From Candidatus Krumholzibacteriia bacterium (GTDB lineage Bacteria > Krumholzibacteriota > Krumholzibacteriia > WVZY01): a stretch of DNA of 10,578 nt. Numbering within the stretch: position 1 is the first letter of the stretch; every line of letters starts with the position of its first letter. Positions 1-5,389 of this stretch are shown in pieces. The stretch lies in the NCBI GenBank assembly GCA_036478295.1, contig JAZGDW010000018.1:1-10578 (forward strand), given 5' to 3'. Under the pieces are notes generated by a model, which was not told the DNA's origin, did no database searches, and was given only the letters and a program-made list of their open reading frames with translations. The position numbers were made by a program, and so were the translations under genes.

Positions 1-281
1 TTCGCACCCAGGTCGTCGCGGCCGGATAGCCGGCGCATCTTCTCCACCGCGAGGTAGCAGAGATTGTCCCGGCCGGTGGGAACGCCGGGGTCCGAGCAGG
101 TGAGGAGGATGCGGCCGCTGTCGTTGAACTCTAACTCCAACTCATCATAGAGGTTAACGCTTTGGAAGATGGTTTCCAGCTCGTGGTAGCCGTCACTTCG
201 CTTGCGGATGATTTCGAGTGCCAGGTTGACTTTTGCGCGGGCACGAGCGCGAACGCTCGGGTTGTCACCGGAACTGGTCAT
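1..281 (-). CDS. ispE: 4-diphosphocytidyl-2-C-methyl-D-erythritol kinase (MEP pathway), partial: 3' end runs off the window
   Basis: Not in the ORF track. Translated by hand from ATG at 281: MTSSGDNPSVRARARAKVNLALEIIRKRSDGYHELETIFQSVNLYDELELEFNDSGRILLTCSDPGVPTGRDNLCYLAVEKMRRLSGRDDLGA... It contains the IspE N-terminal signature AKVNLxLxIxxKRxDGYHELETIFQ and the downstream DNL motif. The start overlaps the upstream TGA (ATGA, 278-281). Confidence 0.95.
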   Translation of the reverse strand, partial: MTSSGDNPSVRARARAKVNLALEIIRKRSDGYHELETIFQSVNLYDELELEFNDSGRILLTCSDPGVPTGRDNLCYLAVEKMRRLSGRDDLGA

Positions 282-1414
282 GTCGTCTTGACTTGCCCGT
301 CTCCACCCGCGTAGAGGGACACGGGCGGTTTGCTGCCGTCGCGGTAGTCATCGAACAGTCGGCCCCACGGGGTTCTCGAAAAGGCCTGGATCCGCCGCCG
401 GCCGATCGTGGGGTACCACAGATAGTCGTGGTAGACGTTCGAGGCGAACGGAGCCCAGACCACCATTGGGGAATGGAGCAAGAGCTTCTCCAGGAATCGC
501 AGGGGACCCAGCCGCAGCATCTGGTCGCCCCAGATGACCAGGCTCTTCCGGCTGGAGAATCCGAAGTTCATCTTCGAAATGTCCTCACCGGCGATCTCTA
601 TCTTCTCGATTCTGCCTTCACCCAATCCTCTTTCCGTCGCCATGCGGATGTAAGGGATATCCATCGGCTCGAACCCCATCAGCTTCGCCGCCACCGCGTC
701 GATCGCCACCGAGTCTGCACTGGCCAGTATCACGTTCTGGATCTTGGGAAACATGGTTCTCGGGCCGGCGCCATCTCCCGCAACGGTTCCGTCCATGACG
801 GCAAAAACGTTGGGGTGCAGTTCCCGCTGCATGTAGAGCAGGTCGACTAGCACCTCGTGGATGTACTTGTGAGCGTAGTGACGGACTTCTTTCAGCAGGC
901 CGCCGAAAGCATTCTTTATCGCACCGGTGGTCACCGAATGGCCGTGCGTTTTGACCGTCGGCAGGTGAAGTATGTCTCTGCCCACGTACATCGCGGGGAT
1001 CTCTATGCCTTCGGGAAAGATGTGGTTGAGTTTGAGCAACTCGGAATCGAACCGGTACACCTTCCATTCGACGTCCGTGAGCGGCCGGAACCGGCAGCGG
1101 TGCTTCTCCAGCACGGGGAGCCAGCGGTTGTTGCGCGCGCCCTTCAGGGGATTGGTTACAACCGTCTTGTTCTCCACCGGCAGCACCTTTTCGGGTTTGT
1201 AACGCTTTTCGAGCAGCGTCTCGAGAACGCCGTCGAGCTGCCACGGCTGACTGGAACAGGCTGGAAAATACTTGGTCCAGGATAAGTTGAGCTTCAGCAA
1301 CAGATCCCGCTCGCCGGTCAGGTGGTCCTGCCAGTGGGCAAGCTCCATCACGCGCTTGTAGTCGGGCAGAATCGTCTCGGGCCGTGTCCTGACGACCGAA
1401 ACAACGGAGGCCAT
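278..1414 (-). CDS. DUF362 domain-containing protein (378 aa), no ferredoxin domain
   Basis: DUF362-type motifs: LLKLNL (KPN-like), LPTVKTHGHSVTTGAIKNAFG, VMDGTVAGDGAGP, ILASADSVAIDAVAAKLMGF and IPYIRMATERGLG. The start is placed at ATG 1414, which has AGGAG 8 nt upstream. The track's extension to 1567 only reads through intergenic repeats. Confidence 0.85.
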   Translation of the reverse strand: MASVVSVVRTRPETILPDYKRVMELAHWQDHLTGERDLLLKLNLSWTKYFPACSSQPWQLDGVLETLLEKRYKPEKVLPVENKTVVTNPLKGARNNRWLPVLEKHRCRFRPLTDVEWKVYRFDSELLKLNHIFPEGIEIPAMYVGRDILHLPTVKTHGHSVTTGAIKNAFGGLLKEVRHYAHKYIHEVLVDLLYMQRELHPNVFAVMDGTVAGDGAGPRTMFPKIQNVILASADSVAIDAVAAKLMGFEPMDIPYIRMATERGLGEGRIEKIEIAGEDISKMNFGFSSRKSLVIWGDQMLRLGPLRFLEKLLLHSPMVVWAPFASNVYHDYLWYPTIGRRRIQAFSRTPWGRLFDDYRDGSKPPVSLYAGGDGQVKTT

Positions 1415-1422
1415 AATCTTAT

Positions 1423-1427
1423 CTCCT
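1423..1427 (-). promoter_or_regulatory. Shine-Dalgarno site of the DUF362 gene
   Basis: The minus strand reads AAC-AGGAG-ATAAGATT-ATG. Confidence 0.8.
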
Positions 1428-1448
1428 GTTGGATGCGTGTGCGGTTTG

Positions 1449-1545
1449 CCACCGTACCGGCATTCTCCTGCGGCGCCGTCGACCACCGAACCGGCGTTCT
1501 TCCGCGGCGCCGTCGACCATCGAACCCGCGTTCTCCCGCGGCGCC
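1449..1545. repeat. Intergenic tandem direct repeat, 34-bp unit, ~2.9 copies
   Basis: Copy 1449-1482: ccaccgtaccggcattctcctgcggcgccgtcga. Copy 1483-1516: ccaccgaaccggcgttcttccgcggcgccgtcga (30/34 identical). Copy 1517-1545: ccatcgaacccgcgttctcccgcggcgcc (26/29 identical to the middle copy). A possible degenerate remnant lies near 1564-1590. There are no spacers. Confidence 0.92.
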
Positions 1546-1612
1546 CTTCTCCGCCGGTGTTCGCCACCCACGGACTTCGCGGCGCTGTCAGGAGCAGCTT
1601 GCAACCTTAATA

Positions 1613-1641
1613 AGTATATTAGAAAAGGTGAAATATCGCAA
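1613..1641 (-). promoter_or_regulatory. Candidate sigma70-type internal promoter for DUF362-ispE
   Basis: The minus strand reads TTGCGA (1641-1636), a 17-nt spacer, then TATACT (1618-1613). It lies in a conspicuously AT-rich patch overlapping the end of the UbiA-family gene. Matches to TTGACA and TATAAT are 4/6 and 5/6. Confidence 0.55.
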
Positions 1642-2509
1642 CCACGAGCAGTATCCACACAAAGACGTCGATGAGGATAAACCGGTCGCTGAGAAGCATC
1701 TCCGATGGACTGCCGCCCTCTTCCCTGCTGTAGACCAGGTAGAGGTAGCGCATGACCCCGATCAGAACCAGGGGTATGGTATAAATGAGCCCCGTGGTGC
1801 CGAAGTGCGCGACCGTATCCGGCCAGATGGTGTAGATCGAATACGACAAGACGGCCCCCCCCGCCGAGATGCCGACCAGTTGATCGATCAGCATCGGCGA
1901 ATACTCCGCCAGTGATTCGCGATGACTGCTGGCATCGTCGAGCGTGCGCAGCTCGTAGCGCCGTTTGCAGAAGGCCAAAAACAGGGACAGGAAGAGCGTA
2001 CAGATCAGAAGCCACGGAGAGAGCTCGATCGTCGAGTCGGCACCCACTAACGCTTCGACTCCGGCGATGGCGCGCACGACAAAGCTCAGTGAAATACTCA
2101 CAACATCGAGCAGCACGATCTTCTTGAGAAGAAAGGAATAGAGAAAATTCAGAGCGAAGAACACGACGGCCACGGTGAAGAAACTCGAACCCACCCGGTA
2201 GGCAAGGAACAGGGCGACGGCGCCGACAACGATCGCAAAGACAAGTGCTTCCGCCACCCGCAGTTCGCCCGCCGCAAGCGGCCGTTTCTTCTTGCCGGCG
2301 TGAATCTTGTCCTTCTCGATGTCGGCGATGTCGTTGACGAGATAGATGACACCGGAGAGTGCACAGAAAATCATAAACGCATACACGCTCTTCAGCAGCA
2401 ACGCCCCGTTGGTGATGTTCTGAGAAAAAATCAGACCGGCAAAAAGGACGAGGTTTTTCGTCCATTGGCGTGGCCGCATCGCCACGAGAAAATAGTAAGG
2501 TTTTTTCAT
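1619..2509 (-). CDS. UbiA-family prenyltransferase, decaprenyl-phosphate phosphoribosyltransferase (DPPR synthase, Rv3806c-like) subfamily
   Basis: Polytopic membrane protein with RPRQWTKNLVLF, YLVNDIADIEKDKIHAGKKKRPLAAG, YSFLLKKIVLLDV, FVVRAIAG, LFLAFCKRRYEL and IGVMRYLYLV..GGSPSE, all typical of this subfamily. The start is ATG 2509 (alternative GTG 2518). Confidence 0.85.
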   Translation of the reverse strand: MKKPYYFLVAMRPRQWTKNLVLFAGLIFSQNITNGALLLKSVYAFMIFCALSGVIYLVNDIADIEKDKIHAGKKKRPLAAGELRVAEALVFAIVVGAVALFLAYRVGSSFFTVAVVFFALNFLYSFLLKKIVLLDVVSISLSFVVRAIAGVEALVGADSTIELSPWLLICTLFLSLFLAFCKRRYELRTLDDASSHRESLAEYSPMLIDQLVGISAGGAVLSYSIYTIWPDTVAHFGTTGLIYTIPLVLIGVMRYLYLVYSREEGGSPSEMLLSDRFILIDVFVWILLVVAIFHLF

Positions 2510-2533: not shown

Positions 2534-5329
2534 CTAGTCCATGGACGCGCGTATTTCACGCGCCGGTTTCTCGCACAGAAGCGTGTGAAGGTTGCCGAGC
2601 AGTTGGGCGCGGTCGGCATCTCCTGGCGCGTGCAGGCACCGCTCGACAGCCGTCAGCATTTCGCTGCCGGCCGGGTACAACGGGCTCACCACGACGCTTG
2701 CACCCGGGATGGACGATCCTTTGAGCAGCTCCGAAGGAAAAAGCATGCGCCTCTCATCGGGCGCCTCAGTGGCTGCGTATCCGCTGGTTTTTCGATCACG
2801 GAAAAACCTCTGCAGATCGCGCGCCCCGATGGGCACCTCGTCTCGAGGGATGATAAGCGCTCTTCCTCTCGCGCTCGCCCCCGCATCCACACACAGCGCC
2901 ACCGCTTCGGGCTCAAAAACGGAGAAACGCTCCTCGGCGTGACCGGTCCGCCCAGCCACGGGCGGCACGCCATCCAGTATTTCCAGGAGCCTTTTCTCCG
3001 TCAGAACCGTGGCCACACGGACGACCCTCGGTGAAGCGGCGTGAAGTTGCCGACAATTGAGGACGCGCGCTTCACTCACGGACAGGAGTTTGGCCGCTTC
3101 GTCCGCCGCCGAGAGATTTTCCCAGAACGAAATCAGCGTCAAGGATTCAACCGGGAGTGCCGAGACGACCTTGACCAGGGCATCGGTCGAGTACACCACG
3201 CTCCGCCACAGGAAATCCCGCTCGTTGACCACAGGGCCCGCGTAAGTCGAGATACAGTGAAAAATCACCTGAGGCTCACAGCCGGAAACAATTCGGGCCG
3301 CTTCGTCCTGATCATCGAGTCGGCCGATATAAAACCGGCAACCCGCGCCCTGCCAACCACCGAAGCGCTCGACGTCCCACTGTGAGTCGATCTGAACGGT
3401 CACCCGTGCTCCCATTCCCACCAATCGTTTCACCAGTGCGCTGCCGATGATGTGACCGCCGTTCGTCACCAGCACGCGTTTTCCGGTGTAGAACTCGCTC
3501 GATCTCTTCTGGCCGTGCAGCGGCAATCCTCTCTTCATGGACCGGCTTATCTGGTCGAACAGCACGACGCCTGACTCCTGCTGTTTGCGATAACGCCCGT
3601 CCCGGGTCTCCAGCGGCAAGCCCGCCGCACGCGCGAGATCGACAAAGGCATCGAGTTGCTTCTGCGGCAACGACGCGATACCCAGCACGAGCGAGTCAAC
3701 TTCGAGCTCTTTGCATATCGCGTCCAGGTTGTCCGCCGGGCCGCGAATGGGGATTCCTTGCAGGGTAAGGCCCTGTTTGTCCTCGTCGTCGTCGATGTAG
3801 CAGACCAGGGACACACTTTTGTCGTGCGTGCCGCGGATCGCACGGCCGATTCGCTCGCCGCGGTCACCGGCTCCAATTACAGCGACACGTTTGACCCGGC
3901 CGCCGAGCGCCTCCTTTCCAAACTCGTGGAAGAGACGCGAGGCGAAGCGTGTGCCCCCCAGCGCCACGATAAGGAGAAAATACTCGATAATAAAAAGAGA
4001 GCGTGGAAACGCAACAAATCTGTAAAACAAGACAAGCAGCACGACGATGATCACGGAGCCGCTGGTGACCGCCTTGACGATTCGGACGACATCGGGTGTG
4101 CTGGTGTATTTCCACACGCCGCGATAGAGACCGTAGTAATAGAAACAGGCGCTCCTGACCACAAGCACCAGCGGGAACGCCTTGAGGATGGCCATCCCCT
4201 CCGCCTCGGTGAAACGAAAGTTCATGCGCAGAAAATACGCTCCGAAATAGGCCAATGCGGTCACCAGCAGGTCACCGGCCACGACCATGAGCGTTCTCCG
4301 TTCCCAGAAGAGACGATCTCCCCTTTCCAGACTGCGAATCTTGAGAATCGTTGCGGTAAAGATCACCACCCAGCACAGGGTCAGAAAGATCGGAAAGAAG
4401 CCGCCCGCCTTGAAGAAGATCAAGGCGCTGACGCCCAGAAGGATGGTCAATGCGTATTCCAGCACTGTCACCTGCTTGTGGTTGAGCCCGAGTGACAGGA
4501 GTCTCTGGTAATAATGGGTGTGGTGGGGCTGGAAGATCTTTTCACCCTTCAACGCCCTCTTTACCAGCGTGAGCCCGGCGTCGAGAAACAAGGAGGAGAG
4601 CATCAACACCGGTATGAAGAACGGAATCTCCGGGCTCAGGCCGTTTCCCATTATCGCGACGCCGGCGAAAACAAACCCCAGAAACGTGCTGCCGCTGTCC
4701 CCCATGAAGAGTCTTGATGGGGGAAAGTTGAACTGCAGGAATCCCACGGCGCTGCCCGCCAGAACCACGCACACCAGCGCCAGCGGAATGTGGCCCAGCA
4801 TGTAAGCAATGAGGGCGAGAAACGTGGCGACGATGAAGGCGCTGCCCGCGGCGAGGCCGTCGACACCATCCACAAAATTGTAAAAGTTTATGCTCGCAAG
4901 GACAAAAAGCGCCGTGAACGGTATCGCCAGCGGGCCCAATTCGAGGGTCCCGACAAGCGGCAGGAAGATGTGGTCGACATAGTGGCCCGCCACAATCAGG
5001 AGCGTTACGGCCAGTCCCTGCGCCAGGAACCGTACGTAAACCGGCAGCGAGCGGCGGTCGTCCATCACTCCGGCTCCGAAAACCAGCAACCCACCGAGCA
5101 CAAGCGGAAGATAGGCCGTCATTCCCGGCCGCACGGTCAGCAAAACCAGGTACACGACCGTGAACGCCCCCACGATGGCGATGCCACCGAGGCGGGGCTT
5201 CGGTGTTTCGTGCGAACTCCGTTCGTTGGGCACGTCGACGAACGCGTTCCGCAGGCGAATCCTCAGAAGCAGCACGGTACCGACATAAGAGACTATGAAT
5301 GCGGAAATGAATGCACCAAGACCGGTCAT
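2534..5329 (-). CDS. Fusion protein (931 aa): WecA/WbpL-type polyprenyl-phosphate HexNAc-1-phosphate transferase + WbpM/PglF/CapD-like membrane and Rossmann linker domains + degenerate SDR dehydratase domain
   Basis: The N-terminal ~335 aa carry MraY/WecA motifs DVPNERSSHETPKPRLGG, GVMDD, NFYNFVDGVDGL, FMGDSGS and HHTHYYQRL. The middle carries PglF-like GDL..AYFLR, GLYRGVWKYTS, PRS, VAVIGAGDRG and YIDDDEDKQG..GIPIRG. The C-terminus begins GKRVLVT but lacks catalytic motifs. The frame is uninterrupted. AAGGA lies 9 nt before ATG 5329. Confidence 0.88.
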   Translation of the reverse strand: MTGLGAFISAFIVSYVGTVLLLRIRLRNAFVDVPNERSSHETPKPRLGGIAIVGAFTVVYLVLLTVRPGMTAYLPLVLGGLLVFGAGVMDDRRSLPVYVRFLAQGLAVTLLIVAGHYVDHIFLPLVGTLELGPLAIPFTALFVLASINFYNFVDGVDGLAAGSAFIVATFLALIAYMLGHIPLALVCVVLAGSAVGFLQFNFPPSRLFMGDSGSTFLGFVFAGVAIMGNGLSPEIPFFIPVLMLSSLFLDAGLTLVKRALKGEKIFQPHHTHYYQRLLSLGLNHKQVTVLEYALTILLGVSALIFFKAGGFFPIFLTLCWVVIFTATILKIRSLERGDRLFWERRTLMVVAGDLLVTALAYFGAYFLRMNFRFTEAEGMAILKAFPLVLVVRSACFYYYGLYRGVWKYTSTPDVVRIVKAVTSGSVIIVVLLVLFYRFVAFPRSLFIIEYFLLIVALGGTRFASRLFHEFGKEALGGRVKRVAVIGAGDRGERIGRAIRGTHDKSVSLVCYIDDDEDKQGLTLQGIPIRGPADNLDAICKELEVDSLVLGIASLPQKQLDAFVDLARAAGLPLETRDGRYRKQQESGVVLFDQISRSMKRGLPLHGQKRSSEFYTGKRVLVTNGGHIIGSALVKRLVGMGARVTVQIDSQWDVERFGGWQGAGCRFYIGRLDDQDEAARIVSGCEPQVIFHCISTYAGPVVNERDFLWRSVVYSTDALVKVVSALPVESLTLISFWENLSAADEAAKLLSVSEARVLNCRQLHAASPRVVRVATVLTEKRLLEILDGVPPVAGRTGHAEERFSVFEPEAVALCVDAGASARGRALIIPRDEVPIGARDLQRFFRDRKTSGYAATEAPDERRMLFPSELLKGSSIPGASVVVSPLYPAGSEMLTAVERCLHAPGDADRAQLLGNLHTLLCEKPAREIRASMD

Positions 5330-5389
5330 GGAGGCCAATCCTTTCGGAATCGATTATCCTCCGGATTTTAGTGACAATAAGGGCTTGCG

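Follow-up and report, generated by a model that had tools for sequence, protein, structure and literature searches.

What might a DUF362 protein do when its gene stands behind one for an enzyme that loads phosphoribose onto a polyprenyl carrier? The question is raised by a stretch of 10,578 nucleotides from a Candidatus Krumholzibacteriia bacterium (hereafter the window), which is the start of contig C90 (JAZGDW010000018.1) of a 3.5 Mb, 91% complete assembly (GCA_036478295.1), and in which a UbiA-superfamily gene of the polyprenyl-phosphate phosphoribosyltransferase (PPPRS) type is followed by a DUF362 gene. The original prediction was that the DUF362 protein acts on the lipid-linked pentose, for instance as a non-homologous epimerase. 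The answer towards which we lean, tentatively, is that the DUF362 proteins of this clade (clade A) are epimerases of polyprenyl-phosphoribose that depend on the nickel-pincer nucleotide (NPN), the cofactor of the LarA family. In the openly accessible literature we found no paper that gives DUF362 a function or ties it to a PPPRS.

A phosphoribosyltransferase and its DUF362 partner

Two genes, and one motif within the second of them, carry the argument:

1619..2509, minus strand: UbiA-superfamily gene of the PPPRS/DPPRS type, 296 aa from ATG, above the cut-off of NF008977, with a match to PF01040
278..1414, minus strand: clade-A DUF362 gene, 378 aa, ATG preceded by AGGAGA, PF04015 E 8.7e-21
869..952, minus strand: DUF362 codons 155-182, K-T-H(157)-x9-K(167)-N-x10-H(179)-x2-H(182), a putative cofactor-binding/catalytic motif

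The UbiA-family protein, for which a GTG at 2518 is a possible alternative start, scores 253.4 bits with the NF008977 model 'decaprenyl-phosphate phosphoribosyltransferase' (cut-off 234) and has 8j8j as its top PDB sequence match (E 1.7e-30). It has the loop II pattern N-D-x-x-D-x-x-x-D and the loop IV pattern R-x-x-E, and the residues concerned (N59, D60, D63, D67, R183 and E186), each conserved in 58-59 of 59 sequences, correspond by motif spacing to those that the accessible text of a study on Citrobacter gives as mutated in ORF15 (PMC11127046). By these sequence features, the product is predicted to be a polyprenyl-phosphate phosphoribosyltransferase that loads phosphoribose on a lipid carrier. 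A PPPRS match is present in 148 of the 151 genomes of the phylum, nearly always as a single copy and usually immediately upstream of ispE-spoVG-prs. We also noticed a different version in G070 (C7:1628593-1630014; L122), where the sole PPPRS match of the genome is of the HAD-fused, ORF15-like type and the phylum-type copy was not found.

A scan of GTDB confirmed 202 relatives of the DUF362 protein, and our locus counts cover the best 80 of these, which are 64-87% identical and come from records labelled Krumholzibacteriota, Aminicenantes, Zixiibacteriota, Planctomycetota, Binatota, Bacillota and others, the closest ones carrying the labels Krumholzibacteriia or Latescibacterota. PPPRS adjoins DUF362 in 62 of the 80 loci (53 in tandem and 9 divergent); among the rest it lies within 8 kb in two, may have been lost beyond a contig end in three and is unlinked in 13. 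The conserved adjacency that had been foreseen is thus found across the clade, and each of the 13 loci that are unlinked and untruncated belongs to a genome with a PPPRS at another site (E 2e-63 or better); the one truncated case tested gave only a weak match. The pair is kept in unrelated contexts and in both orientations, and its association is far above chance.

Genes for GT-C transferases (PMT_2) lie inside or next to the pair in at least four of the 80 loci (L073, L063, L041 and L045). One of these is in a chromosome-level Phycisphaerales record (G191, the genome of L073), in which PPPRS and DUF362 flank two GT-C/TPR genes and which has larB and two larE copies with no larC match. In 15 loci (e.g. 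L023:3307-4221) an EamA/DMT transporter gene, a possible candidate for a flippase, is found near the pair, upstream of it in 13; the examples are Aminicenantes-labelled. The further suggestion of a donor supply from the pair to the glycan locus next to it was not supported: the window has no GT-C gene, a WecA-fusion neighbor recurs in 19 of the 80 loci, and the genes upstream of PPPRS vary across the phylum (sugar transferases, O-antigen ligase, uridine kinase and SIS-domain proteins), so that the adjacent glycan locus is no fixed partner.

The known routes to pentofuranose donors use other enzymes, and these were looked for at three scales. Among the window's eight scanned proteins, DprE1, DprE2, phosphatase and GtrA are absent, as had been stated; an extended-SDR (short-chain dehydrogenase/reductase) epimerase gene does occur at 6398-5421 (PF01370), which qualifies that statement. 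We set this SDR aside as an epimerase of the ORF13 type, with a match in just 6 of the 80 loci. The window has neither a HAD nor a PAP2 gene for the removal of the 5-phosphate, and a HAD-UbiA query aligns with the UbiA part only, the PPPRS having no HAD domain. In the whole assembly, the best match to the DprE1 model reaches 25.9 bits (cut-off 500), that to a DprE2-like query is only 24% identical, and GtrA (PF04138) has no match, with SMR and MATE flippase types outside this genome-wide search; nine PMT_2 matches lie elsewhere in the assembly. For a census we used the DprE1-like protein of G021 as the query (386 bits on NF053785, under its cut-off of 500), the Pfam ALO model having been dropped as a detector after a single weak match in 151 genomes. 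A DprE1-like gene was found in 2 of the 151 phylum genomes, the query's own included, and in none of 50 outside genomes picked among those of the 80 loci, which bears out the expectation that dprE1 is nearly absent from such genomes. The two positives have dprE1-dprE2-like pairs in otherwise dprE-free lineages (G021:C50:2949-4985, L125; G060:C145:3308-5379, L289), that of G060 being close to a TMEM260-like GT-C; as both also keep clade-A DUF362, each of these bacteria could make two pentose donors.

Fold and motif of the DUF362 protein

The DUF362 protein scores 75.3 bits with PF04015 (cut-off 24) and 44 bits with NF052623, the Npun_F2552 family (cut-off 500). A structure model built on 74 sequences (predicted local distance difference test, pLDDT, 83; predicted template modeling score, pTM, 0.86) recovered LarA-family structures only in a fold search, with Z 13.5-16.0 over 214-247 aligned residues, the next fold reaching at most 5.3. 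By this model, the protein is predicted to have the fold of the LarA N-terminal cofactor domain. PDB sequence searches with the protein or its alignment gave no relative, a search of the ESM Atlas gave DUF362 clusters only, and domain and family scans gave no match to Lar_N or the LarA family.

Within this fold, K155, H157, K167 and H182 do not vary in any of 74 clade-A rows, nor in 42 rows taken from the range of DUF362 subfamilies. The motif takes the form H157-x9-K167 with a His at +15, and is found as such in 79 of 80 proteins of the sister clade B; another 16 DUF362 hits include 15 that have it with the His placed at +13 to +15. LarA homologues from the phylum genomes have H-x9-K with a His at +16. 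The LarA residues named as key in the accessible texts are D72, R75, H108, H174, K184 and H200 (PMC7583248; PMC12611868; PMC11851776), and the top local alignment from a broad profile (E 0.43, not significant) pairs H157 and K167 with H174 and K184, a narrow profile having given nothing. We treat the His-x9-Lys-x14-His of DUF362 as a candidate parallel to the NPN site of LarA. The fold search for which the original prediction had called thus lends plausibility to a non-homologous epimerase, through a modeled racemase/epimerase fold and the key His/Lys/His pattern.

The motif is interrupted by inteins in several homologues of clades A, B and C, all at one site, between K155 and T or C156 (P0121, P0123, P0133, P0138, P0142 and P0152, with a further case at G010:C43:8700-11333, L123). 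They are of ~175-530 aa, the long ones having a LAGLIDADG domain where scanned. Intein insertion is a typical mark of a conserved active site. A role in Fe-S chemistry was set aside for clade A, which has no ferredoxin domain and whose sole invariant Cys (C53) is absent from clade B. The C-terminal part (residues 286-357) is helical and unlike the core, with a median net charge of +6.5, 18% aromatic residues and no transmembrane segment; these basic aromatic helices may dock the protein on the membrane.

Cofactor genes, gene decay and the proposed reaction

The assembly from which the window comes has larB, larC and larE, one LarA-family gene and a single DUF362 gene, and hence the NPN cofactor should be available. 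We classed the 151 phylum genomes by score into 53 with clade A, 12 with sister clades only and 86 with neither, and inspected the motif directly for nine cases of families f6 and f7 and for the sister-clade loci. larC or larE is present in 45 of the 53 clade-A genomes, 10 of the 12 sister-clade genomes and 19 of the 86 others, these counts, like those of decay below, running over related genomes of which kin are not independent. Outside the phylum, among 50 genomes for which no completeness is given, larC is present in 36, and larB is above its cut-off in 9 of the other 14. Further, in G095, G147, G002, G102 and G010 larC is kept, no LarA was found and the clade-A-type DUF362 gene is the sole PF04015 gene. 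In other genomes with no LarA match, we observed a DUF362 subfamily with an N-terminus resembling a twin-arginine translocation (Tat) signal encoded beside or near larE and larC (G001:C10:88521-92130; G004:C38:7012-10621; G078:C20; G140:C53; G141:C75; L275-L279), larE being at most a few kb away.

The fate of the gene within the phylum bears on its place in the pathway. Of 95 loci with no intact clade-A gene after PPPRS, 55 have a DUF362 in decay, the gene is cleanly deleted in 28, 9 are arranged in another way and 3 are truncated loci. The motif is found in none of the 55 decayed copies: a residue aligns at position 167 in 43 of them and is never Lys, and none aligns in the other 12, four of which are cut by a contig end. 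Both larC and larE are missing from the genomes of 50 of the 55, and PPPRS remains intact beside the decayed gene. In a PPPRS tree, obtained by a quick search from this protein alone and with most clade-A genomes of families f1, f2 and f5 left out, the decayed copies group into about three clades, and two of these hold one intact NPN-positive member each (G058 and G093). In genus g10, DUF362 and larC are both kept in five genomes and both lost in four, larC is kept with the DUF362 gene deleted in one, and two have no match for any of the three genes.

The decayed frames (L093-L124 and L291-L338, in f6 and f7) stay open between PPPRS and ispE and retain P-W-Q (36-38 of 55) and D208/D234/D239 (51 of 55), and are possibly pseudoenzymes. 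Their retention, along with the presence of PPPRS in 148 of 151 genomes regardless of DUF362, would suit a pair that is no more than inherited gene order, or a DUF362 whose role beside PPPRS is mainly structural and that does no pentose chemistry. We consider this very unlikely, since clade A is 64-87% identical over many phyla with an invariant polar motif, inteins are placed exactly within that motif, and clean deletion in 28 of the 95 loci argues that DUF362 is no required subunit.

In the deleted loci no phosphatase takes the slot, ispE following at once. This bears on the idea that DUF362 is itself the missing 5-phosphatase for polyprenyl-phosphoribose-5-phosphate, for which there is room in a window with no HAD or PAP2 gene and a PPPRS with no HAD domain. 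The idea is highly improbable in our view: the modeled fold is that of LarA, neither HAD nor PAP2; no phosphatase moves in upon deletion, the upstream genes being uridine kinase, SIS or sugar transferases; and a HAD gene already accompanies the intact pair in 8 of the 80 loci. Instead, the dependence runs one way: where clade A occurs a PPPRS is nearly always present, yet PPPRS has no need of DUF362. This fits an optional downstream tailoring step, as with ORF13 in C. youngae O2 versus O1, rather than an obligatory phosphatase. Because PPPRS persists in many relatives with no intact DUF362, the latter behaves as an accessory, dispensable tailoring enzyme rather than as a core step.

The fold, the motif and the cofactor genes together point to hydride-transfer chemistry with NPN, and we infer for DUF362 both NPN binding and membrane docking, as well as the substrate and product that follow. 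PPPRS would load phosphoribose onto the polyprenyl-phosphate carrier, and an unlinked phosphatase, which we assume, would take off the 5-phosphate. DUF362, as a peripheral-membrane enzyme of LarA fold holding NPN made by LarB, LarE and LarC, would then abstract hydride at C2 or C3 of the lipid-linked ribose and deliver it back to the opposite face, so that arabino- or xylofuranose would result. In this scheme the cofactor would be anchored by K167 and the nickel held by H182 (or H179/H186), with H157 as the acid/base. One DUF362 protein would in this way stand in for DprE1/DprE2 or for the SDR ORF13, and the donor would be used by unlinked GT-C enzymes. The step would be optional, lineages that lose DUF362 keeping PPPRS and presumably using ribofuranose. 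The broader proposal, by which clade A would count as the first nickel-pincer enzyme with an identifiable substrate to lie outside the LarA family and would replace DprE1/DprE2 across many uncultured phyla, is a possibility that we advance with somewhat greater reserve.

Several observations weigh against an NPN-dependent epimerase of a lipid-linked pentose. The profile-profile alignment of DUF362 with LarA (hhalign) is not significant (E 0.31 and 0.43), so that the equivalence of residues rests on spacing and fold; LarA H108 has no conserved counterpart, position 81 being E, Q, D or H, and in a low-confidence alignment DUF362 has K41-x-N43 at the D72/R75 region and E81/N82 at the H108 region. 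Seven f6 genomes (87-98% complete, in two clades) have a perfect motif with larC and larE not found, and larB was likewise not found in the five of them tested. In f6 and f7 alone there is no association, with 2 of 9 intact versus 5 of 55 decayed copies in NPN-positive genomes. G006 and G015 carry larC and larE, although neither a LarA nor a DUF362 was found in them. Both dprE1-positive phylum genomes (G021 and G060) retain clade-A DUF362.

Some of this could mean that DUF362 alters the lipid-linked pentose by a hidden or net redox reaction using another pyridine nucleotide or a bare metal in place of NPN. The intact gene occurs with no NPN pathway found in the seven f6 genomes and in 4-5 of the 50 outside genomes, and the missing H108 counterpart points the same way. 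We nevertheless judge a cofactor other than NPN to be quite unlikely, as the motif decays where larC/larE are absent in f7 and the large f6 clade, genus g10 showing this as deletion of the gene, and as two of the seven exceptions (G110 and G138) keep a canonical LarA with no larBCE. These LarA genes (G110:C5:325706-326323 and G138:C74:1230-1850; L127 and L128), in genomes where larB, larC and larE were not found, suggest cofactor scavenging or missing sequence.

The remaining difficulty concerns the substrate. For clade B, which is 43% identical, 80 metagenome loci were covered, of which many are short; a PPPRS lies no further than 6 kb away in just 2 of the 80, and the neighbors in this set include enolase (26), GT2 (16), citrate synthase (13) and larB (13, these largely in one gene arrangement). 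As it keeps the motif yet is rarely near PPPRS, the substrate could be soluble. DUF362 would then be an NPN enzyme for a 2-hydroxy acid, a sugar acid or a sugar phosphate, paired with PPPRS for co-regulation or precursor supply; so far as the accessible texts go, known LarA substrates bear a carboxylate and all characterized LarA-fold enzymes use soluble 2-hydroxy acids, and no PPPRS link was noticed for the other DUF362 subfamilies next to larE/larC. We hold a soluble substrate to be somewhat unlikely, in that no untruncated clade-A locus tested lacks a PPPRS, be it as a direct neighbor, at a distance of up to 8 kb or at another site of the genome; in the model, the C-terminal substrate domain of LarA is replaced by the basic aromatic helices that suggest membrane docking; and a second DUF362 subfamily also adjoins PPPRS in G099 (L167). 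Lipid-linked ribose, epimerized with NPN, stays our tentative choice.

The locus and its place among known systems

Every gene of the window is read from the minus strand, in the order GT4 (a glycosyltransferase family), asparagine-synthase-like amidotransferase, GT4, extended SDR, WecA-type glycosyltransferase fusion, UbiA, DUF362 and the start of ispE. The fusion (2534-5338; ~930 aa) joins a WecA/MraY-type glycosyltransferase to a CoA-binding domain and a degenerate SDR-like tail, and similar fusions are found in up to 19 of 80 related loci. A longer, GTG-started DUF362 frame (1567-278) was rejected, as homologues begin at the ATG at 1414. Three further features flank the DUF362 gene:

3..281, minus strand: 5' part of ispE, its ATG at 281 overlapping the DUF362 stop
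1449..1550, no strand assigned: three tandem 34-bp GC-rich repeats in the UbiA-DUF362 gap
1613..1641, minus strand: promoter-like site TTGCGA-17-TATACT, overlapping the end of the UbiA gene, from a consensus scan only

In relatives, ispE opens an ispE-spoVG-prs-rplY cluster, the last three genes having been recognized downstream of it in related loci; this cluster is one of isoprenoid and phosphoribosyl pyrophosphate (PRPP) supply. That DUF362 directly follows UbiA is right as to gene order, but a 204-bp gap with the three repeats and the promoter-like site lies between them. The repeats, with no other notable copy in the assembly, are probably a local expansion of the leader: the closest relative (L005, 7637-8000) has a leader with three repeats of ~83 bp sharing a 26-bp core with the three 34-bp repeats of the window, and no such expansion was seen in 52 other tandem loci. 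A -10-like hexamer occurs at the same distance in 6 of the 53 tandem loci, each of them from a close relative, and the predicted promoter-like site may drive DUF362-ispE separately.

If the proposed reaction is correct, it would bring the chemistries for pentofuranose donors to three and extend the nickel-pincer cofactor to a new class of reaction, and would tie nickel supply to the structure of the cell-envelope glycan. It would also name one missing larBCE client for genomes that have no larA; in one survey, as far as its accessible text goes, ~15% of genomes have larB, larC and larE without larA, other clients of the cofactor being unknown (PMC11796402). By offering a concrete substrate guess and named residues, the pair makes this open question of DUF362 and NPN clients directly testable, and two published assay systems can be combined for the purpose, namely the farnesyl-phosphate PPPRS assay and co-expression of larBCE in E. 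coli. There may also be unpublished or patent claims of NPN-dependent sugar epimerases, which could lower the novelty.

The type of pathway is known, and it is the enzyme that would be new. The original prediction spoke of defining a non-actinobacterial pentose-donor route, and such a route has already been published: PRPP-derived lipid-linked pentose donors outside Actinobacteria are described in the accessible text of PMC11127046, with DprE1/DprE2 or an SDR as optional epimerases. There, the three-component set of Citrobacter youngae O1/O2 comprises ORF15 (PPPRS-PRP), the ORF14 flippase and the ORF12 GT136, along with the SDR epimerase ORF13, and between O1 and O2 the epimerase is lost with the synthase retained (PMC11127046). 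Our system has in common with this one, to the extent the source allows, a UbiA-fold PPPRS with equal tested residues in a non-actinobacterial host, and an optional epimerase gene, here a candidate, that adjoins the synthase and leaves decayed remnants where lost. Unlike the ORF15 system, the PPPRS of the window has no fused HAD and no linked flippase or GT-C; and unlike the serotype locus of C. youngae, it is a single-copy gene, nearly universal in its phylum, at the ispE-prs cluster. With the mycobacterial decaprenylphosphoryl-arabinose (DPA) pathway, given in the same accessible text as Rv3806c, Rv3807c, DprE1/DprE2 and Rv3789 (PMC11127046), it shares a homologous first enzyme (8j8j, E 1.7e-30), whereas DprE1, DprE2 and GtrA-type genes were not found in this assembly. 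The candidate epimerase is of LarA fold here; those of C. youngae and mycobacteria, as described there, are SDR or DprE1/DprE2.

Finally, the DUF362 protein itself has two sets of relatives with which to be compared. DUF362 and LarA are placed in one Pfam clan in the accessible part of PMC11770544, where DUF362 is used just as an outgroup. With the LarA superfamily (PF09861; 5huq, 9eia, 7s91, 6d6z, 9q3j/9q3k and 4nar) it shares the N-terminal fold, as modeled, the H-x9-K pattern with a later His and the co-occurrence with larBCE, and it is unlike that superfamily in its 8-13% identity, its want of a Lar_N match and of conserved equivalents to H108, D72 and R75, and its different C-terminal part. 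With the other DUF362 subfamilies, including the Tat-exported ones with a polyferredoxin, the ferredoxin-fused ones and the Npun_F2552 family (NF052623), it shares K-x-H-x9-K-N-x-H; clade A is unlike these in having neither a Tat signal nor a ferredoxin domain, and in being tied to PPPRS.

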